Positions 37 to 34,109 of a DNA stretch of 34,411 nt are shown piece by piece (position 1 is the first letter of the stretch; each line of letters starts with the position of its first letter). The translations under genes were made by a program, and so were the position numbers. This DNA is from Bacteroidales bacterium. Its GTDB lineage: Bacteria; Bacteroidota; Bacteroidia; Bacteroidales; UBA12077. Location of the stretch: NCBI GenBank assembly GCA_030156305.1, contig JASGMZ010000004.1, forward strand, positions 1-34,411. The letters run 5' to 3'. A model generated the notes under the pieces. It did not search any database. It saw nothing but the letters and a program-made list of their open reading frames with translations, and had not been told where the DNA came from.

Positions 37-130
37 CACTAAGTCACTCAAAGTATAACACAAAGTTTCACTAAGTAGAATCTCACCTAACTTGGTGTAA
101 CTTTGTGATAAAACTTTGTGGTACATTGTG
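37..130. repeat. Palindromic heptamer array: 4x CACAAAG-like then 4x CTTTGTG-like
   Basis: Heptamers at 37, 47, 59, 69 (cactaag, ctcaaag, cacaaag, cactaag) and 91, 101, 114, 124 (cttggtg, ctttgtg, ctttgtg, cattgtg); same family at 28575-28668. Confidence 0.7.
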
Positions 131-8518: not shown

Positions 8519-10273
8519 CTAATTTATTTGTTTTTGGGCATAATCCAATCCGGTTTGAATAAATTCCTTGGTAATCTGTCCGGTTGGATCTTCAGTTTCA
8601 TAAATTCGTTCAGGAATAGTTAGTTTGTCGAAGTTAAATCCTTCGCGAATTTTAAATTGATATTTATTAAGATGTATTTGTCGTCCAATTTCGTGCAATT
8701 GATTCTCATCCAGGTTAAAACCTAACAGTTTTAATCCCTGGCTTACTAATTTTAGATTATAAATTCCACGTGCAAAGAAACATACGGCAATACTCGAGAG
8801 GATTTGTCGAATTGCTTCTTCATCTAATAATTTATCTACAACCTTTTCGGGCGCTAAAGTATTATCGAGTAATTCTTTTTGATCTATCGAATAACCAGCA
8901 TTATCTAAGTGGCTATGTCTGGCTCCCAATAAAAAGCCTAAATATCCTGCAGGGCCTGTATGATACCCCGGCATTTCATTTTTTCCAAATTGCATAGCAA
9001 ATTCTTTTCCACCATATTTATTGGCTGCAAAGTCTACTCCTTTTGCACAAGCTTTAAGAAATGCTGTTTTTGGATGGGTAATTTTATCCACTAATTTGAT
9101 GTATGCATCTGCGTCGCCCCATTTAATTTGCAATTCTTCAATATCAGCTCCAGAGATTTTATTGCGTTCAAGCATTTCAGTAATCCATGCAAGGATAACA
9201 CCCATGCTCATAGCATCAACTCCAACTTCTTCTACCTTATCAATTAATTTAAGCATTTGCGTTGGATCATAAATTCCAACCATTGTCCCTAATGAATAAA
9301 TTAATTCAAAGTCGTAACCTACAGGAGTTGTTTTAAAAAAATAGGGGTCATCTTCATAAGGTTCACGCAAGTAGGCTAAATGAATACAAGCAACAGGGCA
9401 GTGTGCACAAGCCACTCTTCTGGCAAGATGATTTTTTGCCATTTCTTCACCTGTTAAGGGTTCTATAGATTCACTGGTACTTTTTTGCAGGTTTTTAATG
9501 GGTAAAGCTTTGAGTGTATTTAATGTTTTAATATTAACAGGCGTTCCAATATCGTGATATTTTTTCATTACCGGTGAGTCCGTAGCAATGTTGTAAATAT
9601 CATTGTATAATTTTCTATATTCTTTTTTATTGGTTACCTCAATCATCCGTTTACCTGAAACAATAAGCCCCTTTAATTTTTTACTTCCAAAAACAGCTCC
9701 TAAGCCTAATCTGCCAAAATGACGATAGGTTTCCGTAATAACATTAGAATAGGTTACAAGATTTTCTCCTGCCTGGCCAATACGGAATATGGCCCGGAGT
9801 CCTTCGCCTTTTTCGTTCTGTCTGATAACACGCGCTGGAATAGATCCATCTTTCATTCCCCATAAGGTTTCCGCATTTTTGAAAAATACTTTTCCATCAT
9901 GTATCGAAAGATAAACAGGTATTTCACTGGCTCCTTTGATAACAATAGCACCATAACCAGCCATACGGATAGCAATAGCGCTTCTTCCTCCTGCATGACT
10001 TTCGCCAAGATCACCGGTGTGAGGGGATTTAAACATAGCACAGGTTTTTGATGCTAAAGGAAATACACCGGTTAAAGGGCCTACTGCAAATATTATTGGA
10101 CTTTCCGGAGAGAATGGGTCAATTCCTTCAGGACATTCTTCCATTAATAGCTGAGTAGCTACACCTGTACCTCCCAAATATTTTTCAAAAAGTTCTTTTC
10201 GGCCTTTGACCCAAAATTTCTTTTTTGTCAGATCTATATATAATACTCTTGATAAAGTGTCATTTTCATTCAT
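8519..10273 (-). CDS. aor: Aldehyde:ferredoxin oxidoreductase family (W/Mo-bis-pterin)
   Basis: YLGGTG, KSPHTG, ESHAGG, GRLGLGAVFGSKKLK, CAHCPVAC, D..G.D-like motif; likely start ATG 10273 overlapping ferredoxin stop (ORF track extends to 10291). Confidence 0.88.
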   Translation of the reverse strand: MNENDTLSRVLYIDLTKKKFWVKGRKELFEKYLGGTGVATQLLMEECPEGIDPFSPESPIIFAVGPLTGVFPLASKTCAMFKSPHTGDLGESHAGGRSAIAIRMAGYGAIVIKGASEIPVYLSIHDGKVFFKNAETLWGMKDGSIPARVIRQNEKGEGLRAIFRIGQAGENLVTYSNVITETYRHFGRLGLGAVFGSKKLKGLIVSGKRMIEVTNKKEYRKLYNDIYNIATDSPVMKKYHDIGTPVNIKTLNTLKALPIKNLQKSTSESIEPLTGEEMAKNHLARRVACAHCPVACIHLAYLREPYEDDPYFFKTTPVGYDFELIYSLGTMVGIYDPTQMLKLIDKVEEVGVDAMSMGVILAWITEMLERNKISGADIEELQIKWGDADAYIKLVDKITHPKTAFLKACAKGVDFAANKYGGKEFAMQFGKNEMPGYHTGPAGYLGFLLGARHSHLDNAGYSIDQKELLDNTLAPEKVVDKLLDEEAIRQILSSIAVCFFARGIYNLKLVSQGLKLLGFNLDENQLHEIGRQIHLNKYQFKIREGFNFDKLTIPERIYETEDPTGQITKEFIQTGLDYAQKQIN

Positions 10274-10682
10274 AGCTAACTTCCTTTTCATCTTTGATTA
10301 ATTCTAAAACATCGTATGGGCAATATTCTGCACAAATTCCACATTGTACACAAATTACAGGTTTATTTTGCTCTTCATTCCAAAATACAGCATCAATAAT
10401 GCAAGCTTCTTTACAGAATCCACATCCGATACATTTGGAAGCTTTTAAACGTACTCCGCCATTTTTTTGAGGCACTAATGCCCCGGTAGGGCAAACATTG
10501 GCACAAGGAGGATTTTTGCATGAACGACAAACAATGACGGTATACCCTCTGGATATTCCTCCAGTGGATCGAACACCAATACAGGTGTTTGATAATCCGG
10601 CGTTACCGCTACGCCTCGAACATGCAAACATACAACTCTGACAGCCAACACATCGCATTGCATCTTTTACGGATAGTTTCAT
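10266..10682 (-). CDS. 4Fe-4S dicluster ferredoxin subunit (DmsB/AorA-like)
   Basis: 138 aa with four Cys clusters: CVGCQSC..C, CRSC..C..CP, CIGCGFC..C, CVQCGIC..CP. Confidence 0.9.
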   Translation of the reverse strand: MKLSVKDAMRCVGCQSCMFACSRRSGNAGLSNTCIGVRSTGGISRGYTVIVCRSCKNPPCANVCPTGALVPQKNGGVRLKASKCIGCGFCKEACIIDAVFWNEEQNKPVICVQCGICAEYCPYDVLELIKDEKEVSYE

Positions 10683-11023
10683 AACTTTATCATTTTATTT
10701 TTAATAGATATGCTAAATAATAAATTTATTTCTAATAAATACTAAAAAAAATCAAGGATTTAACAAGATAATAAAATGCTGATTCAGTTTTTTTTTATCT
10801 GATTTTCTGTTTTTATTTATTTAAAACGTTTGCGAAATATTTTTGAAAAGTTATTTTTATAAATGCCATAAGTTGTATTTTAAATATAATTGTTTTAAAA
10901 ATCAAGTAATTTATCGATTTATTTAGGATATCTATGAACTTTTATTATTCATAATTAAAAGTTTTAACTTGATAATTTTAATATATATACCATATTTCTT
11001 ACTTTTATCTAAAATGAAAAATC

Positions 11024-23461: not shown

Positions 23462-23812
23462 ATGATAAAACAAGGATACGTCTACATTATGTCAAATAAA
23501 AACAGAACAACCTTGTATATCGGTGTTACCAATAATCTGGAACGCCGGGTGCTCGAACATAAAGCTGCCTGTGGTTCAAAATTCACATCAAAATACAATC
23601 TTTTTTATTTGCTTTACTGGGAGAAAATTGATGGAATGCAGCGAGCGATAGGCCGGGAAAAACAATTAAAAAACTGGCATAGCGAATGGAAATGGAACAT
23701 CATTCAAGAAGAAAACCCTGCGTTGAAAGATTTAGCCGGGGATTGGTTCTCGGATGATGTGATAAAAGAATATAAAAGGAGCCATTTGGCAGATTCCGAA
23801 GCTAGTTCGTAA
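23462..23812 (+). CDS. Small GIY-YIG nuclease family protein
   Basis: 116 aa; GYVYIM..TLYIGVT..L.RR..EH, FT.KY, AI.REKQLK.W...WK..I...NP...DL. Confidence 0.92.
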   Translation: MIKQGYVYIMSNKNRTTLYIGVTNNLERRVLEHKAACGSKFTSKYNLFYLLYWEKIDGMQRAIGREKQLKNWHSEWKWNIIQEENPALKDLAGDWFSDDVIKEYKRSHLADSEASS

Positions 23813-23816
23813 TGAC
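23791..23816 (-). repeat. REP-like hairpin at 3' end of GIY-YIG gene, inverted relative to 23420-23445
   Basis: Minus strand GTCATTACGAACTAGCTTCGGAATCT; 18/26 identical to the upstream copy. Confidence 0.7.
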
Positions 23817-23829
23817 TGCAAAACATCCG

Positions 23830-24050
23830 ATGAAACAAGAATATGTATATAGTGGCTATAAGAAAACGTCAATAACTGCGTTACGCTCGCATTGGCAACC
23901 AGTCATTTACGTCAGTAAACTCCTGGATGCCAATTCTTCGCAAGCCTTGTTCTTGACGTTTTTTATTACGCCACTAAAAAAACTGGCGTTTTCTAAGATG
24001 CACTATATATCTTATCTAACAAAAACAGAACAACACTTTATCCCGGATGC
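23830..24050 (+). pseudogene. Second GIY-YIG gene 5' remnant interrupted by a MITE-like element
   Basis: Removing the insert gives MKQEYVYILSNKNRTTLYPG versus MIKQGYVYIMSNKNRTTLYIG of the upstream gene. Confidence 0.8.
23850..24005. mobile_element. ~156 bp non-autonomous palindromic (MITE-like) element in a TATATA site
   Basis: Ends TAGTG..CACTA; TATATA at 23846-23851 and 24004-24009; nested inverted repeats; second copy at 34318 onward. Confidence 0.85.
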
Positions 24051-24160
24051 CCAAAGCTTTTTATCTGTATAATCTTAAAAATATTTTCCTAAACACCCTT
24101 GTTCTTTTTTGCTTTTTGTTTGTTTTTGTTAATTTTAGGTTCTGTTAAAATAATAAATGC

Positions 24161-26926
24161 ATGGGTAAAACACCTGAACAAATTGCACGTGAAAAGATTG
24201 ACCAAATGCTGATATCAGCGGGCTGGGTTGTTCAGGATATGAAAGATATCAACCTCGGGGCTTCGTTGGGTGTTATTGTCAGGGAATATCCTACCGAAAC
24301 AGGGCCGGCAGATTATATTATGTTTGTTAACCGTAATCCGGTGGGTGTGATCGAAGCTAAAAAAGAAGGAACTATATTAACTACTGTAGAAGAACAATCG
24401 GAGCGATATGCCACCAGCGGATTGAAATGGAATATCGATCAGCAAAAATTACCATTTATTTACGAAAGTACCGGAGTTATTACACGGTTTACAGATAATC
24501 GCGATCCGGTACCTCGTTCCAGGGAGATTTTTCATTTTCACAGGCCGGAAACACTGGAAGAATTAGTAAAACAAGAAAATTCCTTTCGCTACCGGTTAAG
24601 GAATGACATTCCGGTATTAAACCCTGAAGGGCTAAGAGCTTGCCAGGTAAATGCTATTACCAGGCTCGAAAAATCTTTTGCTGAAAATAAACCCAGGGCG
24701 CTCATTCAGATGGCCACCGGTTCGGGGAAAACATTTACAGCTATCACTTCGGTTTACCGGTTACTTAAATTTGCCCATGCAAAAAGAATTTTGTTTCTGG
24801 TGGATACCAAAAATCTGGGTGAACAAGCTGAACAGGAGTTTCAGGCATACAAGCCAAACGATGATAAACGTAAGTTTACCGAACTATATACAGTACAGCG
24901 GTTAAGCTCCTCATACATTAACCAAAGCTCGCAGGTTTGTATCAGTACGATACAGCGCATGTATTCTATTTTAAAAGGTGAAGAGCTTGACGAAACGGCC
25001 GAAGAACATTCGTTAAATGAAATAAAATTAAACAACGAAAATCCCAAAGAAGTGGTTTATAATCCGGATGTTCCGATAGAAACTTTCGATGTAATCATTA
25101 TTGATGAGTGCCACCGTTCTATTTATAATTTATGGAAACAGGTGCTCGATTATTTTGATGCTCTTCTGATTGGATTAACAGCTACACCCGATAATCGCAC
25201 TTTTGCTTTCTTTCACGAAAATGTGGTAAGCGAATATACCCATGAAGAAGCAATTGCCGACGGGGTAAATGTAGGATACGATATTTATACTATCGAAACG
25301 GAAATAACCCAAAATGGAGCAAAAATTGATGCCAAACAATTTGTGGATTTTCGCAGTAAGTTAACCCGTAAAAAACGTTGGGGGCAATTAGACGAAGAAG
25401 AAGAATATACGGGCAGGAATCTCGACCGTAATATTGTTAATCCAAGCCAGATAAGACAAGTTATACGCACATTTAAAGAAAAACTTTTAACTGAAATCTT
25501 TCCAAACCGCAAGGAAGTACCCAAAACCCTTATTTTTGCCAAAACCGACAGCCATGCCGATGATATTATTCAGATTGTGCGCGAAGAGTTTGGCGAAGGA
25601 AACCAGTTTTGTAAAAAAATCACCTATAAAATTGATGAGGATCCAAAATCCCTTTTAGCCTCGTTCCGAAATGCATACTATCCGCGTATTGCTGTTACGG
25701 TAGATATGATTGCCACCGGAACCGATGTAAAACCTTTAGAGGTGCTTTTGTTTATGCGCGATGTAAAGAGCAGAAACTACTTTGAGCAGATGAAAGGCCG
25801 CGGAACAAGAACCTACCGAAAGGATGACCTGCAAAAAGTAACGCCTTCGGCCGTTTCCAATAAAACACATTTTGTGATTGTGGATGCCATCGGCGTATGC
25901 AAATCGGTAAAAACCGAAAGCAGGGCACTGGAACGAAAAAAATCGGTCCCGCTTAAAGATCTGGTGATGAATGTAATGATGAATAACCGCGATGAAGATA
26001 CCTATACATCTCTTGCCGGGCGTTTGGGCCGAATAGAAAAGCAAATGACCCCTGAGGAAAAAAATCAATTTAAAGCTATTGCCGGTGGTAAAAGTATTCA
26101 CCAGGTAACCCATGAGCTCTTAAATGCCTACAATCCCGACTGTGCTATTGAAGAAACAAAAGCAAAATATCCCGAAACGGTTAATCTCGATGAGCAGGAA
26201 ATCCCGGCCGAAAGAGTAGAAGAAAGTAAGCAGGAATTGATAAATAAAGCAGGCAATGTATTTACCGGAGAGCTGTTGCAATATATCGAAAAAGTAAAAA
26301 CTGCACACGAGCAGATTATTGATACCGTAAACCTGGATAAAGTAAATTTTGCAGGTTTTTCGGACGATATGCAAGAGAAGGCCAAAGAAACCATCAAAAG
26401 CTTTGAGGCGTTTATTGAGGCGAATAAAGATGAAATTATTGCGCTTCGGATTTTTTACGATCAGCCTTATAAGCGCAGAAAGTTTTCTTATCAAATGATC
26501 AAAGAATTGCGCGGGAAATTGCTGCAAAGCAAACCCAATCTATCTATAATGACTGTTTGGGAAGCATATAAACGTTTGGAAAACAAACAAATATCGAACC
26601 CGGCCACCGAATTAACCGCATTGGTGGCTTTGGTAAGGCGTGCAATAGGGCTTGATACGGGCTTAACCCGGTTTGAAAGTACCGTAAATAATAATTTTAA
26701 ACAATGGGTGTTTACCAAAAATGCCGGTAATGTACAGTTTAGCAAAGAGCAAATGGAGTGGCTGCGGATGATGAAAGATTACATAGCCACCTCAATGAAT
26801 ATCGAAAAAGACGATTTTGACAACGAGCCCTTTGCCGAAAAAGGCGGGTTAATGAAAGTATGGAATATTTTTGGTGATCAACTGGAAGATATTGTAGAAG
26901 AATTAAATGTTGAATTAATTGCATAA
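24161..26926 (+). CDS. hsdR: Type I restriction endonuclease subunit R
   Basis: 921 aa; ADY..IEAK nuclease motif, MATGSGKT, DECHR, GLTATP, MIATGTD, QMKGRGTR, EcoEI-like helical C-terminus. Confidence 0.93.
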   Translation: MGKTPEQIAREKIDQMLISAGWVVQDMKDINLGASLGVIVREYPTETGPADYIMFVNRNPVGVIEAKKEGTILTTVEEQSERYATSGLKWNIDQQKLPFIYESTGVITRFTDNRDPVPRSREIFHFHRPETLEELVKQENSFRYRLRNDIPVLNPEGLRACQVNAITRLEKSFAENKPRALIQMATGSGKTFTAITSVYRLLKFAHAKRILFLVDTKNLGEQAEQEFQAYKPNDDKRKFTELYTVQRLSSSYINQSSQVCISTIQRMYSILKGEELDETAEEHSLNEIKLNNENPKEVVYNPDVPIETFDVIIIDECHRSIYNLWKQVLDYFDALLIGLTATPDNRTFAFFHENVVSEYTHEEAIADGVNVGYDIYTIETEITQNGAKIDAKQFVDFRSKLTRKKRWGQLDEEEEYTGRNLDRNIVNPSQIRQVIRTFKEKLLTEIFPNRKEVPKTLIFAKTDSHADDIIQIVREEFGEGNQFCKKITYKIDEDPKSLLASFRNAYYPRIAVTVDMIATGTDVKPLEVLLFMRDVKSRNYFEQMKGRGTRTYRKDDLQKVTPSAVSNKTHFVIVDAIGVCKSVKTESRALERKKSVPLKDLVMNVMMNNRDEDTYTSLAGRLGRIEKQMTPEEKNQFKAIAGGKSIHQVTHELLNAYNPDCAIEETKAKYPETVNLDEQEIPAERVEESKQELINKAGNVFTGELLQYIEKVKTAHEQIIDTVNLDKVNFAGFSDDMQEKAKETIKSFEAFIEANKDEIIALRIFYDQPYKRRKFSYQMIKELRGKLLQSKPNLSIMTVWEAYKRLENKQISNPATELTALVALVRRAIGLDTGLTRFESTVNNNFKQWVFTKNAGNVQFSKEQMEWLRMMKDYIATSMNIEKDDFDNEPFAEKGGLMKVWNIFGDQLEDIVEELNVELIA

Positions 26927-26940
26927 CTATATTCGTAAAA

Positions 26941-27846
26941 ATGAGTAGGAATAGCGAAAATATTCTTGAAAAACCTAAATCAGAATGGGGAGGGATTTGG
27001 ACTGAAAAGAAACTTGATGCATTTGCTAAATATGTTTCCGCCTATTTAAGAATAATGAATAGGAATAAGTATTGGAAAACTATTTATTTTGATGGTTTTG
27101 CAGGAAGCGGTACCAGAAAGTCAAATTGTAAATCTCCAATATACAGGCAGTTACTATTAACCGAACAGGAAGAAAGATTATATAAAGGTGCAGCTGAACG
27201 TGTACTTTCATTACCTGATAAATTAAAATTCGATTATCATTACTTCATTGATTCAAATGAAGAGTCTCTTAATAATTTAAAGGATAGATTATTAGATTTT
27301 CAGGAAAGTTATCAAAATCAATTTCAGTACAGGACAGGCGATTGTAATCAACACTTGTTGGATCTTTCTAAAGCTATGAAATCGAATAAAAATAAATACG
27401 CATCACTTGTTTTATTGGATCCGTTTGGTATGCAAATTAGTTGGGATTCTATTGAATCATTAAAAGAAACAAGAACAGATATTTGGATTTTGATTCCGAC
27501 AGGGGTAATTGTTAACCGATTGTTAGATAAATCTTGTCAGCTTAAAAATTCAAAGAAACTTCAATCTTTTTTTGGGCTAAGTAAAGATGAAATAATTGAG
27601 TATTTTTACCAGAAAGAAGTAAGGTCAACCTTATTCGGCGATGAAGAAGTTATAACAAAGGTTTCTAAACCAATTGAAAAAATTGCTGAATTATATTCGA
27701 AAAGATTAAAATCTATTTGGAAATTTGTGACAGATAAACCGTTAAGGTTAGAAAATTCAAGGGGTGTGCCGATTTTTCATTTTGTTTTTGCTTCAAATCA
27801 TCCGGCAGCAGTTAAAATTGCAAAAGAAATTATTAAAAGTTCATAA
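26941..27846 (+). CDS. tcmP: Three-Cys-motif partner protein (SAM-dependent methyltransferase fold)
   Basis: 301 aa; WTEKKL...Y, YFDGFAGSG, FID, GDCN, LLDPFG; immediately upstream of DUF5131. Confidence 0.85.
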   Translation: MSRNSENILEKPKSEWGGIWTEKKLDAFAKYVSAYLRIMNRNKYWKTIYFDGFAGSGTRKSNCKSPIYRQLLLTEQEERLYKGAAERVLSLPDKLKFDYHYFIDSNEESLNNLKDRLLDFQESYQNQFQYRTGDCNQHLLDLSKAMKSNKNKYASLVLLDPFGMQISWDSIESLKETRTDIWILIPTGVIVNRLLDKSCQLKNSKKLQSFFGLSKDEIIEYFYQKEVRSTLFGDEEVITKVSKPIEKIAELYSKRLKSIWKFVTDKPLRLENSRGVPIFHFVFASNHPAAVKIAKEIIKSS

Positions 27847-27848
27847 TT

Positions 27849-28571
27849 ATGGCAACAACAAAAATAGAATGGACAGAAAGTACATGGAATCCTGTAACAG
27901 GATGCACTAAAATATCAGCAGGTTGTAAGTTTTGTTATGCAGAAGTTATGACCAGACGTTTAAAAGCCATGGGACAGGAAAAATATCGTTACGGGTTTGA
28001 TTTAACTTTACATCCCGAAACGTTAAAAGAACCCTATACCTGGAGAAAATCAAGAATGATTTTCGTAAATTCCATGAGCGATCTTTTTCATAAAGATATT
28101 CCTGTAGATTATATTCAAAAGGTTTTTAAAGTAATAAAGGATAACCCACAGCATGTTTTTCAGGTATTAACTAAAAGAGCTGATGTGTTAAAGTTTTATG
28201 ATAGTGAAGGATTGCTTGAGTGGCCTCATAACTTATGGATGGGAGTAACTGTTGAAAACAATGATGCTGTTGATCGAATAGATAACTTAAGAAATACAGG
28301 AGCAAGAGTTAAATTTCTTTCTTGCGAACCTTTATTAAGTGATTTACCTAGATTGAATTTGAGTCATATTGACTGGGTAATTGTTGGTGGAGAAAGCGGG
28401 CGAACACCACGTCCAATGAAAGAAGAATGGGTGATTGATATTAAAAAGCAATGCCAGCAAGCAAATGTTGCTTTTTACTTTAAACAATGGGGCGGTACAA
28501 ACAAAAAGAAAGCGGGTAGAAAGTTAGAAGGTAAAGTTTATGCTGAAATGCCTGTGTTAAACGATTTATAA
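27849..28571 (+). CDS. DUF5131 / phage Gp37-Gp68 family protein (radical-SAM-like)
   Basis: 240 aa; IEWT..TWNPVTGCTKISAGCKFCYA, FVNSMSDLF, QVLTKR, SCEPLL, WVIVGGESG, FKQWGG. Confidence 0.92.
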   Translation: MATTKIEWTESTWNPVTGCTKISAGCKFCYAEVMTRRLKAMGQEKYRYGFDLTLHPETLKEPYTWRKSRMIFVNSMSDLFHKDIPVDYIQKVFKVIKDNPQHVFQVLTKRADVLKFYDSEGLLEWPHNLWMGVTVENNDAVDRIDNLRNTGARVKFLSCEPLLSDLPRLNLSHIDWVIVGGESGRTPRPMKEEWVIDIKKQCQQANVAFYFKQWGGTNKKKAGRKLEGKVYAEMPVLNDL

Positions 28572-28574
28572 AAA

Positions 28575-28668
28575 CTTTGTGTCTCTTTGTGATTTTCCTT
28601 TGTGAAACTTTGTAGTAAATTTTTTTAAACCACAAAGGCGCACAAAGTACACACGAAGGCTCACAACG
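28575..28668. repeat. Palindromic heptamer array: 4x CTTTGTG then 4x CACAAAG-like
   Basis: ctttgt(g/a) at 28575, 28585, 28598, 28608; cacaaag, cacaaag, cacgaag, cacaacg at 28631, 28641, 28652, 28662. Confidence 0.8.
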
Positions 28669-28688
28669 AATAAACAGGAAAATATAAA

Positions 28689-29921
28689 ATGAAATTACCA
28701 AAAGGGTGGATAAAGTCGAAATTTAAGGGAGTTTTACATAATATTTCCATTAATAATTTAAAAGTAAAGAAAAAGGATTATTTACTCCAAGGGAAGTTGC
28801 CTGTTATTGATCAAGGACAGGAGTTAATAGGTGGTTATACAAATAATATTGAAAATAAAATTGATGAAGAGCCACCTTTTATCATATTTGGTGATCATAC
28901 TAGAATTTTAAAATTTATTAATTTCAGTTTTGCACCAGGTGCTGACGGTGTAAAAGTTTTGAAGGCTAAGAATAATATAGATTCTAAATTGTTATATTAT
29001 TTTTTAAAAGTTATTATAAATAAGGTTCCCAATAAGGGTTATGCTAGGCATTTTCAATATTTAACAAAGGAAAATATCCCACTCCCCCCACTTCCCGAAC
29101 AACACCGCATTGTAAAAAAAATTGAAGAGCTGTTTAGCGAACTCGATAATGGCATAGAAAACCTGCAAAAAGCCAAAGAGCAAATAAATACCTACCGGCA
29201 ATCCGTTTTAAAAGCCGCGTTTGAAGGGAAATTGACTAATGAAAATGTTAAAAATGACGAGTTGCCAAAAGGGTGGAAGTGGCTGTCAATTAAAGATATT
29301 TGTTCTAAGGTAGAATATGGTTCATCGAAGAAATCAGAAAAAGAAGGTAGAATTCCAGTTCTTAGGATGGGGAATATTCAACATTATTTCTTTGATTGGA
29401 CTGATTTGGTTTATTCAAATGATGATGAAGAAATTACTAAATACAGATTAAAAAAGGGAGATGTTTTATTTAATAGAACAAATAGTCCTGAATTGGTTGG
29501 AAAAACTGCTATATATTTAGGAGAAAGAGAAGCAATTTTTGCAGGTTATTTAATTAGAATACATTACAATTCAGATATTAATCCAAAGTATTTAAATTAT
29601 TATCTAAACTCTCTGAATGCTAAGGAGTACGGAAATACAGTAAAAACTGATGGCGTGAATCAGTCTAATATAAATGGGCAGAGATTAAAAGGCTATCCTT
29701 TTCCTTATTGTAAAAAAGAGGAACAAAATAAAGTAGTCTCAGAAATCGAACAACGTTTCTCGGTAGCCGATAAACTGGAAGAAAGCATCGATCAAAGCCT
29801 GCAACAAGCCGAAACGTTGCGGCAAAGTATTTTAAAAAAAGCCTTTGAAGGCAAACTAGTTCCGCAGGACCCAAATGACGAGCCGGCAGAGAAATTGTTA
29901 GAAAAGATAAAAACCCCGTAA
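28689..29921 (+). CDS. hsdS: Type I restriction-modification specificity subunit S
   Basis: 410 aa; LPKGW opens both TRDs, PLPPLPEQHRIV conserved region, QS.LK.AFEGKL twice, PQDPNDEPA tail. Confidence 0.93.
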   Translation: MKLPKGWIKSKFKGVLHNISINNLKVKKKDYLLQGKLPVIDQGQELIGGYTNNIENKIDEEPPFIIFGDHTRILKFINFSFAPGADGVKVLKAKNNIDSKLLYYFLKVIINKVPNKGYARHFQYLTKENIPLPPLPEQHRIVKKIEELFSELDNGIENLQKAKEQINTYRQSVLKAAFEGKLTNENVKNDELPKGWKWLSIKDICSKVEYGSSKKSEKEGRIPVLRMGNIQHYFFDWTDLVYSNDDEEITKYRLKKGDVLFNRTNSPELVGKTAIYLGEREAIFAGYLIRIHYNSDINPKYLNYYLNSLNAKEYGNTVKTDGVNQSNINGQRLKGYPFPYCKKEEQNKVVSEIEQRFSVADKLEESIDQSLQQAETLRQSILKKAFEGKLVPQDPNDEPAEKLLEKIKTP

Positions 29922-30177: not shown

Positions 30178-30636
30178 ATGGCAAATACTTACACTCAGTT
30201 ATATATACAAATTGTATTTCCCGTAAAAAACAGGGAAAGTGTTATTCCACAAAAACATAAAGAAGAATTACATAAATATACTACTGGAATTATTCAAAAT
30301 CGTAATCATAAATTATTAGCTATTAATTATATGCCTTTTCATGCGCATATATTTATTGGCTATAAACCTGTTCAGGCACTACCTGATCTTGTTTGTGATA
30401 TAAAAGCAAATACCTCTAAATTTATAAATGATAAAAATTGGGTAATTGGACGTTTCAGCTGGCAGGAGGGCTATGGTGCTTTTTCATATTCCAGATCGCA
30501 CATCGATCATGTTATTCAGTACAAAATTAAACAGGAAGAACATCATAAAAAATCTTCATATAAAGACGAATACCTTAAATTATTAAAAAAATATGAGGTT
30601 AATTATGATGATAAATACCCGTTCAACTGGATATAA
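30178..30636 (+). mobile_element. tnpA: IS200/IS605-family Y1 transposase TnpA, possibly decaying
   Basis: 152 aa; MANTYTQLYIQIVF.VKNR, HAH (HUH), IKANTSK, FSWQEGYGAFSYS, Y...QEEHH; no tnpB. Confidence 0.8.
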
Positions 30637-30650
30637 ATATAAATATTACC

Positions 30651-30984
30651 ATGTACCAATTATCAAAAAAAAAAAATAAAATTACCAGCGAAATCAATGA
30701 AAAGAGGTTACAAACCGAATACAAAACCGGAATTTTACGCTGCAAAAAAATTTTGGATAACTGGAACCCCGATGCAATGGATAACTTTGAAACATACCAT
30801 AAACTTTATAAAACACTAACTGAATACGATAAACACTTTGCTTTTTGTTACGATTACATGAGTGGCTCAAAATATTTAAATGTTATAGCTTTACAGTTAG
30901 CCGATAAGGTTGGCTTAAAAGGCTTTTACCGATGAAACCAGGGATATAATTATTCGCTGGAGCAGAATAAATGAAAAAATCTAA
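30651..30984 (+). pseudogene. Small hypothetical protein gene, probably frameshifted near its 3' end
   Basis: 94 aa ORF ends 30935; removing one T in ggcttttacc continues [20 protein letters not shown] to TAA 30984; A12 run at 30665-30676. Confidence 0.4.
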
Positions 30985-30998
30985 ATAATTTAAACAAG

Positions 30999-32588
30999 AT
31001 GGAAGAAAAAAGAGAAGAAACTTTTGAATTTTTAAATTACAAGCTAACAGATGATCCTGAACTTTTAGATAAAGATTCAAGAATTACACCAGAATTATCC
31101 GAACAAATGGAATCTTTGCATCATAAAGCCCTGAAAGGCGGCAAAAAAAATATCGATTATTTATTGCATAAAATTGAGCAATACCCGGATGTTCCGCAGC
31201 TTAAAAATTATTTATCGGTAGCTTATATGAATAGTGGTAAAACAAAAAAAAGTTTTGAAGTGAATGATTGGATTCTCAAGGAGCATCCTGATTATTTGTT
31301 TGGATTATTAAATAAAGGATACGAGTATTATATAAATGAGCAGTACGAGAAAATTCCGGAGTTGTTAGGCCATTTAATGGAAATAAAAGAGTTATATCCC
31401 GAACGGGATATTTTCCATTTTTCAGAAGTGATTTCTTTTAATAAATTAGCGGTCATGTATTTTTCGGTAATCGGCAATTTTGAAGCAGCCGAATCGAGAT
31501 TTGAGTTATTAGCGAAGCTGGCTCCCGATCACAGGGAAACGGAAATAGCATTTCAGGCACTTCTGAGTGCCCGCATGAAAGCAGGACACGAGAAATTCCT
31601 TGAAGAAGAAAAAATGCGAATTAGCCCTGAGCTTAAGGACTACAATAAATCGATACAAACCGATAAAGCACCAGAATTTGAGCATTTATTAATCAATGAA
31701 TTATATCAGAACGATGTTAAAATCAATCACGATATTTTAAAAGAAATTCTAAGCCTGCCCCGCCACTCAATTATTAGCGACCTGAAGAAAGTTTTAAACG
31801 ATTCGATTTGCCGTTTCGAATATTTTAAGGAGTTGTATAATGAGGGAAATATTAATGGAAAAGATATCACTTTTCCCATACATGCTTTGTTTTTGCTGGG
31901 TGAATTAAAGGCTTATGAAACGTTGGATGATATTTTAGAAAATTTAAGGCAGGGAAAAGAATTTATCGAATTCTGGTATGGAATTTTTATGACCGAAGCT
32001 TTATGGTTGCCTTTGTATCAATTAGCCGGGCCTAATCTGGATAATTTAAAAGATTTTATGCTTGAGACGGGAATATATACCTATGCCAAAACCGAAGTTT
32101 CAACAGCTATTATGCAATACTATTACAATAATCCTGAAAAAAGAGAGCTTATTGTAAACTGGTACCAAAGCATTCTGCACAATTTTTTAACCACAGAGAA
32201 AGACAACCTGATAGATTCCGAATTAATTAGTTTAATGATATGTGAGATAATGAAAGCTGATTTTAAAGAACTAATCCCTTTAATAGAAAAACTTTACGAA
32301 AAAGGGTATGTTAGCCAGGGTGTTTGTGGTACATTAGATGAAGTAAAAGAATATTTTGGAAAACATGAAATTGAGTACTGGAAAAACGATAAAAAATCAA
32401 TCTTTGAAATGTATGATTATATTGTAAAATATTGGTATTCATACAACAAAGAAAAGCAAAACGAAACATTTGATTCCTGGCACAAAAAGGAAGAAACATA
32501 TATACGCAACGAACCTAAAATTGGGCGAAACGACCCTTGTCCTTGTGGTAGCGGGAAAAAATACAAAAATTGCTGTTTAAATAAATAA
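30999..32588 (+). CDS. SEC-C motif protein with helical-repeat N-terminus and DUF1186-like region
   Basis: 529 aa; C-terminal [20 protein letters not shown]; [11 protein letters not shown]; TPR-like NYLSVAY..HPDYLF. Confidence 0.75.
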
Positions 32589-32642: not shown

Positions 32643-34109
32643 ATGACACAACAAATCATACAAAAAGTCTGGAATTATTGCAATACCTTACGGGATGACG
32701 GGGTAAGTTACGGCGATTATGTAACCCAACTGACCTACCTGCTGTTTTTAAAAATGGCCGATGAGTATTCCAAAAAACCTTACGAACGCAATATCGGAAT
32801 TCCTGAAAAGTATAACTGGGAATCGTTGAGAACAAAAACAGGAGCAGAGCTGGAAGCTCATTACATTACTATTTTAAATGAGCTGGGTAAACAAAAAGGC
32901 ATGCTGGGACAGATTTTTTTCAAAGCGCGAAACGAGATTTCCGACCCTTCCAAGTTGCATAAGCTGGTACAAATGATTGACCAGGAAACATGGGTAATGC
33001 TGGGTTCGGATGTGAAAGGCGATATTTACGAAGGGCTATTACAGAAAAATGCAGAAGATACCAAAAGCGGTGCCGGCCAATATTTCACACCACGCCCGTT
33101 AATACGTGCAATGGTTGAGTGTGTTCGGCCACAGCCTATGAAAACTATGGCCGATCCGGCATGTGGTACGGGTGGTTTCTTTTTGGCTTATTATGATTTT
33201 ATCAATCAGTTTTATAAAAAATCTTTAGATAAAGAGCAGCAGGAGTTTTTACGTAAGAAAACATTTAAAGGATGGGATATCGTACCCAACACCGTTCGTT
33301 TGGGATTAATGAACCTGGTTTTACACAATATTGGCGATTTGGATGATACCAATCCGCCTATTGTTCGCAACGATAGCCTTATTTCCGATACCGGCGAACG
33401 GTTCTATTATGTATTAACCAATCCTCCGTTTGGCAAAAAGAGTAGTTATACCATTACCAACGACGATGGTACGCAATCCAAAGAAGCTTTAACCTATAAC
33501 CGTCAGGATTTTTGGGCTACCACATCCAATAAGCAGTTAAATTTCATTCAGCATATCCGCACCATATTAAAAATTGATGGCAAGGCCGCTGTGGTGGTTC
33601 CCGATAATGTGTTGTTCGAAGGTGGAGCGGGAGAGACCGTGCGGAAAAAACTGCTGGAAACTACCGATTTACACACTATTCTACGGTTGCCTACCGGATT
33701 GTTTTATGCACAGGGAGTAAAAGCAAATGTGCTGTTTTTCGATAACAAACCGGCAAGTAAAAACCCGTGGACCAAAGACGTGTGGATTTACGACCTGCGT
33801 ACCAACAAGCATTTTACCTTAAAAACAAACCAGTTAAGTTACGAAGACCTTAAAGATTTTATCCGGTGTTATAATCCGGATAATCGATTTGAGCGTAAAG
33901 AAACAGAGCGGTTTAAAAAGTTTACTTACGAGGAGATTATTGCCCGCGATAAAACCAGCTTAGATATTTTCTGGTTAAAAGATGAAAGCTTAAGCGATTT
34001 GGAAAATTTACCGAAACCCAATGTACTGGCCGAGGAGATTATTCAAAATATTGAAGCCGGGCTAAATAGCTTTAAAGAAGTGCTGAATGGATTAAATGGG
34101 AGGGAATAA
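32643..34109 (+). CDS. hsdM: Type I restriction-modification adenine methyltransferase subunit M
   Basis: 488 aa; LRDDG..Y..QLTYLLFLKM, AGQYFTPR, DPACGTGGF, NPPF, LRLPTG. Confidence 0.95.
   Translation: MTQQIIQKVWNYCNTLRDDGVSYGDYVTQLTYLLFLKMADEYSKKPYERNIGIPEKYNWESLRTKTGAELEAHYITILNELGKQKGMLGQIFFKARNEISDPSKLHKLVQMIDQETWVMLGSDVKGDIYEGLLQKNAEDTKSGAGQYFTPRPLIRAMVECVRPQPMKTMADPACGTGGFFLAYYDFINQFYKKSLDKEQQEFLRKKTFKGWDIVPNTVRLGLMNLVLHNIGDLDDTNPPIVRNDSLISDTGERFYYVLTNPPFGKKSSYTITNDDGTQSKEALTYNRQDFWATTSNKQLNFIQHIRTILKIDGKAAVVVPDNVLFEGGAGETVRKKLLETTDLHTILRLPTGLFYAQGVKANVLFFDNKPASKNPWTKDVWIYDLRTNKHFTLKTNQLSYEDLKDFIRCYNPDNRFERKETERFKKFTYEEIIARDKTSLDIFWLKDESLSDLENLPKPNVLAEEIIQNIEAGLNSFKEVLNGLNGRE

Follow-up and report, generated by a model that had tools for sequence, protein, structure and literature searches.

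A tcmP-DUF5131 gene pair between hsdR and hsdS of a type I restriction-modification operon: a catalogued anti-phage candidate and putative nucleic-acid-modifying cassette

The locus and its catalogue status

The window analysed here is a stretch of 34,411 nucleotides from a Bacteroidales bacterium, which carries a type I restriction-modification (R-M) operon of the EcoEI type that is apparently intact (Table 1). The hsdR, hsdM, and hsdS genes are all full length, lie on one strand, and have no internal stops; cargo genes separate them. The product of hsdR matches Pfam ResIII (3.7e-40), EcoEI_R_C (1e-37), and HSDR_N, as well as NCBIfam NF008521 (E 2.8e-113) and PADLOC REase_I. That of hsdS matches Methylase_S in two stretches (Pfam, E 5.4e-21) and Specificity_I (PADLOC, E 6.4e-79), and that of hsdM matches N6_Mtase (3.7e-67) and HsdM_N in Pfam and MTase_I in PADLOC (E 3.8e-195). 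Between hsdR and hsdS lie tcmP and a DUF5131 gene, which by all appearances form one mobile two-gene cassette. The ORF coordinates confirm the preliminary description of the locus: gene order, common strand, gaps of 14 and 2 nt before the two genes, and hsdS downstream.

Table 1. Features of the type I R-M operon and its cargo (positions in the window)
Feature	Position	Strand	Description
hsdR	24161-26926	+	921 aa; type I restriction subunit, EcoEI/EcoAI-like
tcmP	26941-27846	+	301 aa; starts 14 nt after the hsdR stop
DUF5131 gene	27849-28571	+	240 aa; starts 2 nt after the tcmP stop
Intergenic spacer, DUF5131 to hsdS	28572-28688	no strand	117 nt
hsdS	28689-29921	+	410 aa; type I specificity subunit, two target-recognition domains
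Further cargo between hsdS and hsdM	30178-32588	+	three ORFs
IS200-like Y1 transposase	30178-30636	+	Pfam Y1_Tnp 1.7e-20
94-aa ORF	30651-30935	+	embedded cargo, hsdS-hsdM interval
SEC-C/DUF1186 protein	30999-32588	+	529 aa; Pfam SEC-C 8.2e-10, DUF1186 7.3e-6
hsdM	32643-34109	+	488 aa; type I N6-adenine methyltransferase

The GC content at third codon positions (GC3) is 0.22 in tcmP and 0.25 in the DUF5131 gene, versus 0.38 in hsdR and 0.43 in hsdM, which suggests that the pair and the R-M genes have separate origins. The spacer downstream of DUF5131 contains the heptamer CTTTGTG five times (three direct and two inverted copies) and is longer than in relatives, where the gap to hsdS is only 18-36 nt. 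A scan for sigma-70 promoters and terminators gave a signal no better than that of shuffled sequence. Among the cargo between hsdS and hsdM, the SEC-C tail of the 529-aa protein matches PADLOC PDC-S12 (2.6e-11).

The pair had been put forward as a candidate novel DNA modification or defence system. The novelty has to be given up, since the two adjacent genes match over their full length PADLOC PDC-M41A (E 1.4e-109) and PDC-M41B (E 3.5e-124), a class built on the same reasoning from embedding in type I R-M loci. Hence, the pair is already catalogued as a candidate anti-phage system and is not new as a candidate. The DUF5131 protein also matches PDC-M30B (8.7e-124). In the accessible text of Payne et al. 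2024 (bioRxiv 10.1101/2024.01.29.577857), the PDC candidates come from genes found inside type I R-M, BREX, and DISARM loci and are predictions only; the main text, as far as accessible, names neither PDC-M41 nor PDC-M30. We found no report of anti-phage activity of PDC-M41 in the accessible literature, where these two names appear only in two P. aeruginosa papers, and there as PDC-M30 alone. The earlier statement that the chemistry of both families is uncharacterised agrees with our literature searches, which found no biochemical characterisation of TcmP or DUF5131.

The two protein families

The TcmP of the window matches TIGR04474 (141.1 bits versus a cut-off of 53, E 6.2e-41, model positions 2-260 of 263), a family with 1,993 representatives at 50% identity, and has no Pfam family match. 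It carries motif I as DGFAGSG (residues 51-57) and an LDPFG (159-163) that includes the motif IV variant DPFG (160-163). G55 of motif I and D160-P161 of motif IV are invariant among 108 TcmP representatives. The methyltransferase fold proposed from these motifs gained support from the alignment by hhalign of the profile of the 108 sequences with an RsmD profile of 23 sequences (94.9%, E 4.3e-8, 98 columns), in which motifs I, II, III, and IV are in register. RsmD served as the comparison because the RlmJ family was absent from the sampled genomes (found in 0 of 121 genomes of the phylum sample by family search). A search of the PDB with the TcmP profile retrieved a putative methylase (2fhp_A, E 0.0066), and the single-sequence search retrieved a chance repeat protein only. 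The 108 members give weak sub-threshold Pfam matches to Cons_hypoth95 (15 members), RsmJ (6), and TRM (6), with a best E of 3.5e-4. These weak relatives methylate rRNA and tRNA rather than DNA. Neither the window protein nor any of the 108 members reaches the Pfam cut-off of a curated methyltransferase family, and we thus file TcmP as a methyltransferase fold rather than as RsmD or RlmJ. The class I SAM methyltransferase fold of TcmP is RsmD-like but divergent, and the window holds the short form of the protein; the long form has a weak GMT-like wHTH match. The ESM atlas matches of TcmP all score below 0.9 and are only leads for a kinship of the RNA-methyltransferase type.

The second protein is a full-length member of DUF5131 (PF07505; 331.9 bits versus a gathering threshold of 28.9, E 2.9e-99, model positions 1-243 of 243), a family also called "phage Gp37/Gp68". 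Its CTKISAGCKFC corresponds to C19-x6-C26-x2-C29 and is followed by GGESG at residues 180-184; the three cysteines and GGESG are invariant among 40 DUF5131 sequences. All three motifs singled out in the preliminary description are thus present in the translations, with key residues invariant in the family alignments. Its attribution of DUF5131 to the radical-SAM type agrees with the listing of the family as subgroup Megacluster-5-2 of the superfamily, with motif CX6CX2C (PMC9477430). DUF5131 is accordingly classed as a radical-SAM-superfamily subgroup with a putative barrel and putative SAM cleavage. The alignment by hhalign with a PA0069-type radical SAM enzyme covers 21 columns at the cluster loop (61%), where the two align save for a 3-residue insertion, and nothing beyond this loop, hence it supports the motif only. 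Sequence and profile searches of the PDB with DUF5131 found no relative. DUF5131 gives a match to protein A of the NCBIfam "radical SAM mobile pair" (1.5e-26, 93 bits) that is far under the cut-off of 355, and PA0069-type neighbours match protein B of this pair at about 1e-25. The nearest cluster outside DUF5131 in the ESM atlas is annotated "putative DNA repair photolyase"; with a score of 0.85, it is no more than a lead.

Pairing, fusions, and genomic contexts

In 34 of 40 TcmP loci, tcmP is followed by DUF5131 on its own strand, at a distance of -20 to +37 nt, and in 401 genomes tcmP is directly upstream of 52 of the 63 DUF5131 genes with scores of 310 bits or more. These numbers exclude a chance pairing and bear out the earlier claim of a recurrent partnership. 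TcmP is absent upstream of the other 11 DUF5131 genes, some of which are intact copies within type I loci, where other cargo occupies the tcmP slot. In one such case (L075), a 283-aa gene upstream of DUF5131 was considered as a divergent TcmP and rejected (hhalign probability of 1%).

The two proteins are also found fused. Among the 120 longer DUF5131 proteins listed, 39 also contain TcmP; DUF5131 precedes TcmP in 36 of these fusions, and TcmP comes first in 3. Of the 22 proteins tested, 10 had a confirmed TIGR04474 match, and some of the fusions are encoded on contigs of 3.8 and 6.3 Mb. A further candidate fusion, the 552-aa P0162, turned out to be a tandem TcmP duplicate and was rejected. 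DUF5131 is fused as well to HsdM_N and N6_Mtase, to Dam, to N6_N4_Mtase, to ParB_N, to the Shedu domain SduA_C, to the BPTD_3080 restriction endonuclease, and to LigT. Short gaps, co-occurrence, and natural fusions together argue for one functional unit, and the fusions strengthen the earlier proposal that two enzymes act together on nucleic acid. No nuclease or other effector could be recognised in the pair.

The two partners evolve very differently. Mean pairwise identity is 59.9% for DUF5131 versus 27.4% for TcmP, DUF5131 is the more conserved protein in 99.7% of 666 pairs, and the identities of the two are uncorrelated (Spearman 0.07). DUF5131 thus looks like the conserved core and TcmP like a variable partner, and partners are swapped.

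The distribution of the pair is patchy. TcmP is present in 57 of the 401 genomes of the phylum sample (14%) and in 40 of 180 genera, and DUF5131 in 78 of the 401 genomes; RsmD, by contrast, is found in 41 of 41 genomes. Several copies are degraded. Ten of the 63 tcmP matches follow an EcoEI-type hsdR at a distance of at most 3 kb; they come from at least four genera, and the type I label changes at least four times on the DUF5131 tree. In one clade of a single genus, all eight sampled DUF5131 genes are directly upstream of hsdS-hsdM, and the gene between hsdR and DUF5131 in this genus is a short, long, or truncated TcmP, or unrelated cargo.

The preliminary description had noted that R-M loci often carry other defence genes. 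The contexts of the pair are mixed. Part of the loci adjoin type II R-M systems, Shedu, AbiJ, toxin-antitoxin pairs, integrases, or relaxases. When the 40 TcmP loci are sorted by the Pfam names of their neighbours, 13 have only housekeeping or unknown neighbours and 8 have neighbours of DNA-repair or SOS type (PA0069-family radical SAM enzyme, UmuD, Y-family polymerase, ligase-associated exonuclease, Ada, and UvrD). The majority of the bacterial copies are on the chromosome, with no mobile gene among the three neighbours on each side.

The occurrence of DUF5131 in phages, also noted earlier, was confirmed in 178 of 50,697 phage records, where the gene is often alone in early recombination and replication modules; gp53 of Panchino, for instance, adjoins RecT, RusA, and a methylase. 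In the Gordonia phage BaxterFox, the lysogeny region carries a pair, with the integrase on one side and the immunity repressor on the other, and motifs I and IV of its TcmP-like protein are degenerate. Prophage defence genes are usually found in this region. In S. meliloti, tcmP and the validated defence gene hna are listed as one putative unit in the accessible part of PMC12445080.

Proposed role, alternatives, and comparison with known systems

We propose that both products most likely make up one SAM-dependent enzyme acting on nucleic acid, probably on DNA bases. TcmP, fast-evolving and exchangeable and with a fold of the RsmD/N6-amino-methyltransferase type, would bind SAM, select and flip the target base, and perhaps N-methylate it. 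DUF5131 would be the catalytic core, which would hold a [4Fe-4S] cluster through CX6CX2C and use SAM for radical chemistry on the same nucleotide. That DNA is the likely target is suggested by the fusions of DUF5131 to HsdM_N/N6_Mtase, Dam, N6_N4_Mtase, ParB_N, SduA_C, and BPTD_3080 and by the weak GMT-like wHTH match of the long TcmP, while the RNA-methyltransferase kinship of TcmP and the degenerate BaxterFox motifs count against a DNA-modifying module. The cassette would most likely serve in conflicts of hosts with phages or other mobile elements, as a defence or as a protective DNA mark, and is probably autonomous rather than an obligatory part of HsdRMS. The match to PDC-M41, the recurrent embedding in type I loci, the defence and mobile neighbours, the BaxterFox locus, the unit with hna, and the patchiness point to such a role. 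The housekeeping and repair/SOS contexts, the dispensability of TcmP, and the lack of an effector in the pair count against it. All in all, we give an even chance to the reading of the pair as a mobile two-subunit, SAM-dependent DNA-base-modifying module in phage-host conflict.

The main rival is a role in DNA-damage repair or tolerance, where DUF5131 would reverse a base lesion in the manner of spore photoproduct lyase and TcmP would recognise and flip the lesion; the R-M embedding would then be hitch-hiking. Spore photoproduct lyase belongs to the radical-SAM megacluster of DUF5131 (PMC9477430), and the cluster loop of DUF5131 resembles that of the PA0069-type "photolyase-like" radical SAM proteins. 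In three genera, LigT, a PA0069-family radical SAM gene, tcmP, and DUF5131 follow one another in this order by umuD, and PA0069 is one of the 15 SOS genes of P. aeruginosa in the accessible text of 10.1101/2022.03.14.484287. Other loci have DUF72, DinB_2, a Y-family polymerase, a ligase-associated exonuclease, or Ada, and the LigT fusion and the atlas lead fit as well. However, we consider this role rather unlikely, considering the presence of the pair in a minority of genomes, the degraded copies, the frequent partner swapping with fast TcmP evolution, and the many loci in mobile-element, prophage, or defence-island contexts; the fusions to restriction nucleases and DNA methyltransferases also fit it less well.

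The pair might alternatively be a protective or selfish modification of the DNA or RNA of mobile elements and phages, used for anti-restriction or addiction and not for host defence. The phage records, in which DUF5131 often stands alone in early modules as in Panchino, the fusions to orphan-type Dam, N6/N4 methyltransferases, and ParB_N, and the relaxase, transposase, or integrase neighbours of some loci are consistent with this. Yet BaxterFox is temperate and carries its pair in the lysogeny region, and the bacterial copies are mostly chromosomal with no mobile genes close by, which makes this explanation quite unlikely.

It is improbable that the pair is an accessory of type I R-M, in which DUF5131 with HsdM (and TcmP where present) would process or supplement m6A, or act as a PrrC-like guard. 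The invariable position of DUF5131 upstream of hsdS-hsdM in the clade mentioned above, with a variable gene on the hsdR side, would fit this, as would the DUF5131-HsdM fusion P0399 and the reuse of the slot downstream of hsdR in four genera. However, the embedding concerns only 10 of 63 tcmP matches, with most pairs alone or in unrelated contexts, P0399 stands for one cluster only, encoded on a contig of 4.1 kb, and the GC3 of tcmP and DUF5131 differs from that of hsdR and hsdM. Moreover, the slot takes many unrelated cargos (accessible text of 10.1101/2024.01.29.577857). Finally, a housekeeping pair modifying rRNA or tRNA, which the kinship of TcmP with RsmD, RlmJ/RsmJ, and Trm1-type RNA methyltransferases, its only detectable relatives, might evoke, is most improbable given that the pair is found in 57 of 401 genomes while RsmD is found in all 41, that it is embedded in defence loci, and that DNA methyltransferases and nucleases are among the fusion partners of DUF5131.

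A more specific and unlikely reading has DUF5131 acting on the flipped base, or on a fresh N-methyl group, provided by interchangeable partners of amino-methyltransferase fold (TcmP, Dam-like, N6/N4 methyltransferases, or HsdM). If true, some type I R-M loci would add a second, radical-derived layer to their DNA mark. This layer could be a hypermodified adenine, or else an "eraser" that removes N-methyl marks without oxygen, and bacterial immunity would thereby gain a new class of DNA chemistry. More generally, a methyltransferase fold flipping a base for radical chemistry on DNA would, if confirmed, be a new enzymatic principle in DNA modification and anti-phage immunity. In the accessory genomes of bacteria, the pair is among the more widespread "known unknowns". 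Beyond its catalogue entry, concrete testable handles come from the natural fusions, from a core that is conserved while its partner varies, and from the joint inheritance of DUF5131 and hsdS-hsdM within one genus.

Among known systems, the closest are PDC-M41 (short TcmP) and PDC-M30 (long TcmP), from which the pair of the window differs in nothing of kind, and which are a class of putative defence systems. TcmP is related at the level of the fold to class I amino-methyltransferases of the RsmD/RlmJ/Trm1 type (m2G, m6A), but has DPFG instead of DPPY/F as motif IV. Relative to RsmD-type enzymes, its N-terminus has a further conserved helix, a segment is inserted after motif I, and the C-terminal half, about 110 residues and longer in the long form, is variable. 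DUF5131 has the megacluster and the cluster-loop signature in common with the spore-photoproduct-lyase/PA0069/Rv2578c group of radical SAM proteins, but spans about 240 aa and has CX6CX2C instead of CX3CX2C. The anticodon nuclease PrrC is, like the TcmP-DUF5131 pair, a cargo nested inside type I R-M operons, where it is almost exclusively found (accessible text of 10.1101/2024.01.29.577857), whereas the pair is embedded in about one sixth of the cases only and is without a nuclease domain. The pair may also be compared, by analogy and with no claim of sequence kinship, to an enzyme couple in which a SAM methyltransferase and a radical SAM enzyme act on one purine. This is the synthesis of wybutosine, where the N-methyltransferase Trm5 and then the radical SAM enzyme TYW1 modify the same base, but in a tRNA pathway and with enzymes that are neither fused nor coupled in an operon.

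The type I locus and its central gene pair

The contig (C117) belongs to an assembly of 2.59 Mb in 232 contigs, with a completeness of 78%. A TcmP and DUF5131 pair had been described within a type I R-M operon, and the ORFs, NCBIfam, and Pfam show that it is real and was described correctly. The spacings of 14 nt (hsdR to tcmP) and 2 nt (tcmP to DUF5131) are exact by ORF coordinates, and the motifs DGFAGSG, LDPFG, and CTKISAGCKFC are all found in the translations. The gene identities are clear: ORF1 matches TIGR04474 with 141 bits (cut-off of 53) and has no family in the Pfam scan, while ORF2 matches PF07505 across the whole model (E 2.9e-99).

Features of the window, in order of position
Feature	Position	Strand	Length and matches
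CTTTGTG, three copies	59-120		
GIY-YIG nuclease-domain protein and overlapping ORF	23462-24072		116 aa and 86 aa
hsdR	24161-26926	+	921 aa; Pfam ResIII, EcoEI_R_C, HSDR_N
tcmP (ORF1)	26941-27846	+	301 aa; TIGR04474
DUF5131 gene (ORF2)	27849-28571	+	240 aa; PF07505
CTTTGTG, five copies (three direct, two inverted)	28575-28647		
hsdS	28689-29921	+	410 aa; two Methylase_S stretches (Pfam)
Second cargo block	30178-32588		
IS200-like transposase	30178-30636	+	Y1
Small ORF	30651-30935	+	94 aa
SEC-C/DUF1186 protein	30999-32588	+	529 aa
hsdM	32643-34109	+	488 aa; Pfam HsdM_N, N6_Mtase

GC3 is 0.22 in tcmP, 0.25 in DUF5131, and 0.27 in hsdS, against 0.38 in hsdR and 0.43 in hsdM. This contrast suggests that the central part of the operon has had a history of its own. 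The heptamer CTTTGTG is found in the spacer between DUF5131 and hsdS, and also close to the start of the window, in a stretch that aligns loosely with the spacer region. The window has 10 copies for 4.0 expected (at least 10 in 3 of 100 shuffles), and they could represent either an intergenic element present in repeats or boxes resembling promoters. The second cargo block, made of the transposase, the small ORF, and the SEC-C/DUF1186 protein, separates hsdS from hsdM; the SEC-C tail of the latter protein matches the PADLOC candidate PDC-S12 (E 2.6e-11). The GIY-YIG protein lies in the mnmE-hsdR interval, and a close relative of the locus (L001) has a GIY_YIG_2 protein of 310 aa after hsdS.

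Co-occurrence, fusion, and exchange of the partners

In the phylum sample, TIGR04474 has 63 matches in 57 of the 401 genomes (40 of 180 genera) and PF07505 is found in 78 genomes. We fetched 40 of the 63 tcmP loci to study their neighbourhoods. DUF5131 is downstream of tcmP on the same strand in 34 of them, with gaps from -20 to +37 nt; two of the other six have a degraded tcmP and four lack DUF5131. Conversely, tcmP is upstream of 52 of the 63 DUF5131 matches scoring at least 310 bits. The 11 without it include one at a contig start. There is no DUF5131 beside 10 of the 63 tcmP matches, and three of these 10 are at the end of a contig. Hence, the two families are recurrent partners, as the preliminary description had it, and the pair is a unit. 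At two loci, L043 and L045 (about 9441-10977), DUF3109 rather than DUF5131 follows a TcmP-like gene that is divergent but has intact motifs I and IV, and this pair adjoins uvrD. The DUF3109 protein (191 aa, C-x4-C-x3-CC) may be an alternative Cys-rich partner for the TcmP-like protein.

Fusion proteins give the strongest new evidence. We found 1366 longer DUF5131 proteins and ran the TcmP and DUF5131 HMMs on 120 listed ones: 36 have the order DUF5131-TcmP, 3 have TcmP-DUF5131, 17 have DUF5131 split into two matches, and 64 have other or unknown extensions. NCBIfam confirmed TIGR04474 in 10 of 22 longer proteins tested, and some fusions are carried by contigs as long as 3.8 and 6.3 Mb. The existence of both domain orders argues for TcmP and DUF5131 being a physical unit. 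The C-terminal part of one fusion protein aligns end to end with the long form of TcmP, and its tail has a weak match to a GMT-like wHTH (22.8 bits, under the cut-off). Most of the split proteins (e.g. P0396, P0410, and P0411) have the intein-type domain LAGLIDADG_3, re-scanned for P0396 only, and one also lists an intein-splicing domain, which suggests that there are inteins inside DUF5131.

DUF5131 is also fused to HsdM_N and N6_Mtase (P0399), Dam (P0426), N6_N4_Mtase (P0445), ParB_N (P0406 and P0436), LigT (P0394), GNAT (P0422), Shedu SduA_C (P0506), the BPTD_3080 restriction endonuclease (P0461), and PFIN (P0413). Since these non-TcmP fusions are mostly single clusters on short metagenomic contigs, they may result from gene-calling run-through. 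The recurrence of DNA amino-methyltransferases and DNA nucleases among the fusions points to DNA as the putative substrate.

The two partners differ in conservation. Among 37 intact pairs (666 comparisons), DUF5131 proteins average 59.9% identity and TcmP proteins 27.4%. Identity is higher for DUF5131 in 99.7% of the comparisons, and that of one partner does not correlate with that of the other (Spearman 0.07). On the DUF5131 tree (49 rows), eight genes from a single genus form a clade in which every member is embedded in a type I locus, with hsdS-hsdM immediately downstream. There, the slot between hsdR and DUF5131 is occupied by a short TcmP (L027, L032, and L034), a long one (L012), a truncated one (L028), or by unrelated genes: an SDH-type protease (L074), a 283-aa protein ruled out as a TcmP (L075, hhalign 1%), and PDC-M68 ABC-3C genes (L076). 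The copies of DUF5131 lacking TcmP are 82-96% identical to the rest of the clade and have intact motifs. Hence, TcmP is exchangeable and not strictly required for the retention of DUF5131. The DUF5131 of the window groups on the tree with a copy of 70% identity (L003, 3865-5506, titled uncultured Hyphomicrobiales), where tcmP is split into two ORFs. The contig is labelled as another phylum; a transfer between phyla is one possible reason for the grouping, and a problem of binning or labelling is another.

Genomic contexts, phages, and catalogues

Genes for hsdR of the EcoEI_R_C type have about 171 matches in 126 of the 401 genomes. By comparison of coordinates, 10 of the 63 tcmP matches are at most 3 kb downstream of one, on the same strand (four genera, with 7 of the 10 from a single genus). 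Around 0.01 would be expected by chance, given about 0.43 hsdR sites in a genome of roughly 3.5 Mb, which is an order of magnitude only since related genomes are not independent. The type I label requires five changes on the DUF5131 tree. Well-supported branches impose at least four of them, and none of 500 shuffles scored as low.

We sorted the 40 loci by our own judgement, using the Pfam names of three genes on each side. The neighbourhood is of type I R-M in 8, of other defence or mobile functions in 11 (NgoMIV and TdeIII R-M, Shedu SduA_C, AbiJ, AAA_13, and also HepT/MNT, ParDE, RelB, integrase, and relaxase), of DNA-repair type in 8, and of housekeeping or unknown genes only in 13. The repair group includes three loci (L014, L016, and L036), from three genera of one bacterial family, with a LigT-like phosphoesterase, a PA0069-family radical SAM (NF033668), a long tcmP, and DUF5131 in that order, adjoined by a umuD-like gene. 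DUF5131 is similar to 'mobile pair protein A', and its PA0069 neighbour to 'mobile pair protein B'; PA0069 has been reported as a photolyase-like SOS gene (10.1101/2022.03.14.484287). For S. meliloti, a published table groups tcmP (SMa2243) with hna, a validated defence gene, in one putative unit; each of the two is up-regulated about two-fold (PMC12445080).

DUF5131 had been said to occur in phages, and we found it in 178 of 50,697 records, mostly from phages of Mycobacterium (53) and Gordonia (49). TcmP was found by tblastn in two Synechococcus phages only. In phage Ssp-JY39, tcmP is convergent with the DUF5131 gene (45% identity). Gordonia phage BaxterFox (L047, NC_031226.1, 2725-4721) has a DUF5131 ORF with 52.7% identity to the window protein; it is unannotated, and the record places genes 39-41 over it on the opposite strand. 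Gene 42, which is convergent with this ORF, is TcmP-like (hhalign 99.6%) with degenerate motifs I and IV, and the two are flanked by the integrase on one side and the immunity repressor on the other. Phage Panchino has a lone DUF5131 of 358 aa among RecT, RusA, and a methylase.

The earlier interpretation was reasonable overall, save for novelty: the pair is a member of an existing PADLOC candidate, PDC-M41. Its full-length matches are to PDC-M41A (1.4e-109), PDC-M41B (3.5e-124), and PDC-M30B (8.7e-124). Short-form TcmP matches PDC-M41A, and the long form of other loci (about 360-415 aa) matches PDC-M30A (e-132 to e-143). Hence, PDC-M41 and PDC-M30 are two size classes of TcmP sharing one DUF5131. 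The 145 'phage defence candidates' are reported as derived from genes nested inside BREX, DISARM, and type I R-M loci, and as put into PADLOC as predictions, without testing; the main text of that work (Payne et al., 10.1101/2024.01.29.577857) does not name PDC-M41 or PDC-M30. A literature search for the candidate names met them in two P. aeruginosa papers only, both of which have PDC-M30 alone. Literature searches found no functional study of DUF5131, TcmP, Gp37Gp68/COG4422, or the 'radical SAM mobile pair'.

Kinship and possible function of the two proteins

We aligned 108 full-length TcmP representatives, taken from 1993 matches (alignment A1). G55 (motif I), D160-P161 (motif IV), and P186 are invariant. 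The profile aligns with that of 23 RsmD of the phylum (hhalign 94.9%, E 4.3e-8), pairing DAFAGSG with DLFAGSG, FIE with FVE, the aspartates of motif III, and the two forms of motif IV. It also matches a PDB entry, the putative methylase 2fhp_A (E 0.0066), and among the 108 proteins there are weak Pfam matches to Cons_hypoth95 (15 proteins), RsmJ (6), and TRM (6). TcmP is thus a divergent class I fold of the amino-methyltransferase type. It is outside every curated methyltransferase family; the closest protein-atlas clusters are RsmJ/RlmJ (0.82-0.84), as a lead only.

In 40 DUF5131 proteins, C19, C26, C29, E160-P161, G180-G184 (GGESG), and K212-G215 are invariant. The family is placed in the radical-SAM subgroup Megacluster-5-2, with a CX6CX2C motif, which adjoins spore photoproduct lyase (PMC9477430). 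The cluster loop alone aligns with PA0069-type radical SAM (hhalign 61%), the match to 'radical SAM mobile pair protein A' (E 1.5e-26) is far under the model cut-off, and a sequence search of the PDB found no relative. DUF5131 is a putative radical-SAM-type subunit with a putative barrel fold. One copy without TcmP (L082, 3174-3902), adjoining an IrrE/M78 and DUF4411 pair, has Tyr for the third cluster Cys and is probably inactive. A distinct form of about 350-420 aa, with a large insertion in the domain (L085 and L086, in genomes G298 and G050), has at most three copies per genome, amid short ORFs resembling prophage regions.

The best-supported reading, to which we give an even chance, is a mobile two-subunit enzyme acting most likely on DNA, in conflicts between phages and hosts or involving mobile elements. 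What follows on the substrate, the use of SAM, the sequence of steps, and the biological role is our inference. TcmP, the exchangeable methyltransferase-fold subunit, would target a nucleotide and possibly methylate it, and the conserved radical-SAM-type subunit, DUF5131, would carry out the main reaction, with DNA as the most likely substrate. Such conflicts would be where the module is used. The SOS neighbours of the pair and the kinship of DUF5131 with spore photoproduct lyase speak for a repair function, a possible explanation to which we give limited credence. It is rather improbable that the pair is a protective or selfish modification borne by mobile elements, and slightly more doubtful that it is an accessory to the type I system itself, which the co-inheritance of DUF5131 with hsdS-hsdM and the DUF5131-HsdM fusion would fit. 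A housekeeping RNA modification is very unlikely.

The fusions, the swapping of partners, and the co-inheritance at the level of the locus make the pair a well-posed experimental target. In comparison with known enzymes, motif IV is FLDPFG in TcmP whereas it is FADPPY in RsmD, and the cluster-loop signature of DUF5131 is that of PA0069-type radical SAM, save for a 3-residue insertion.
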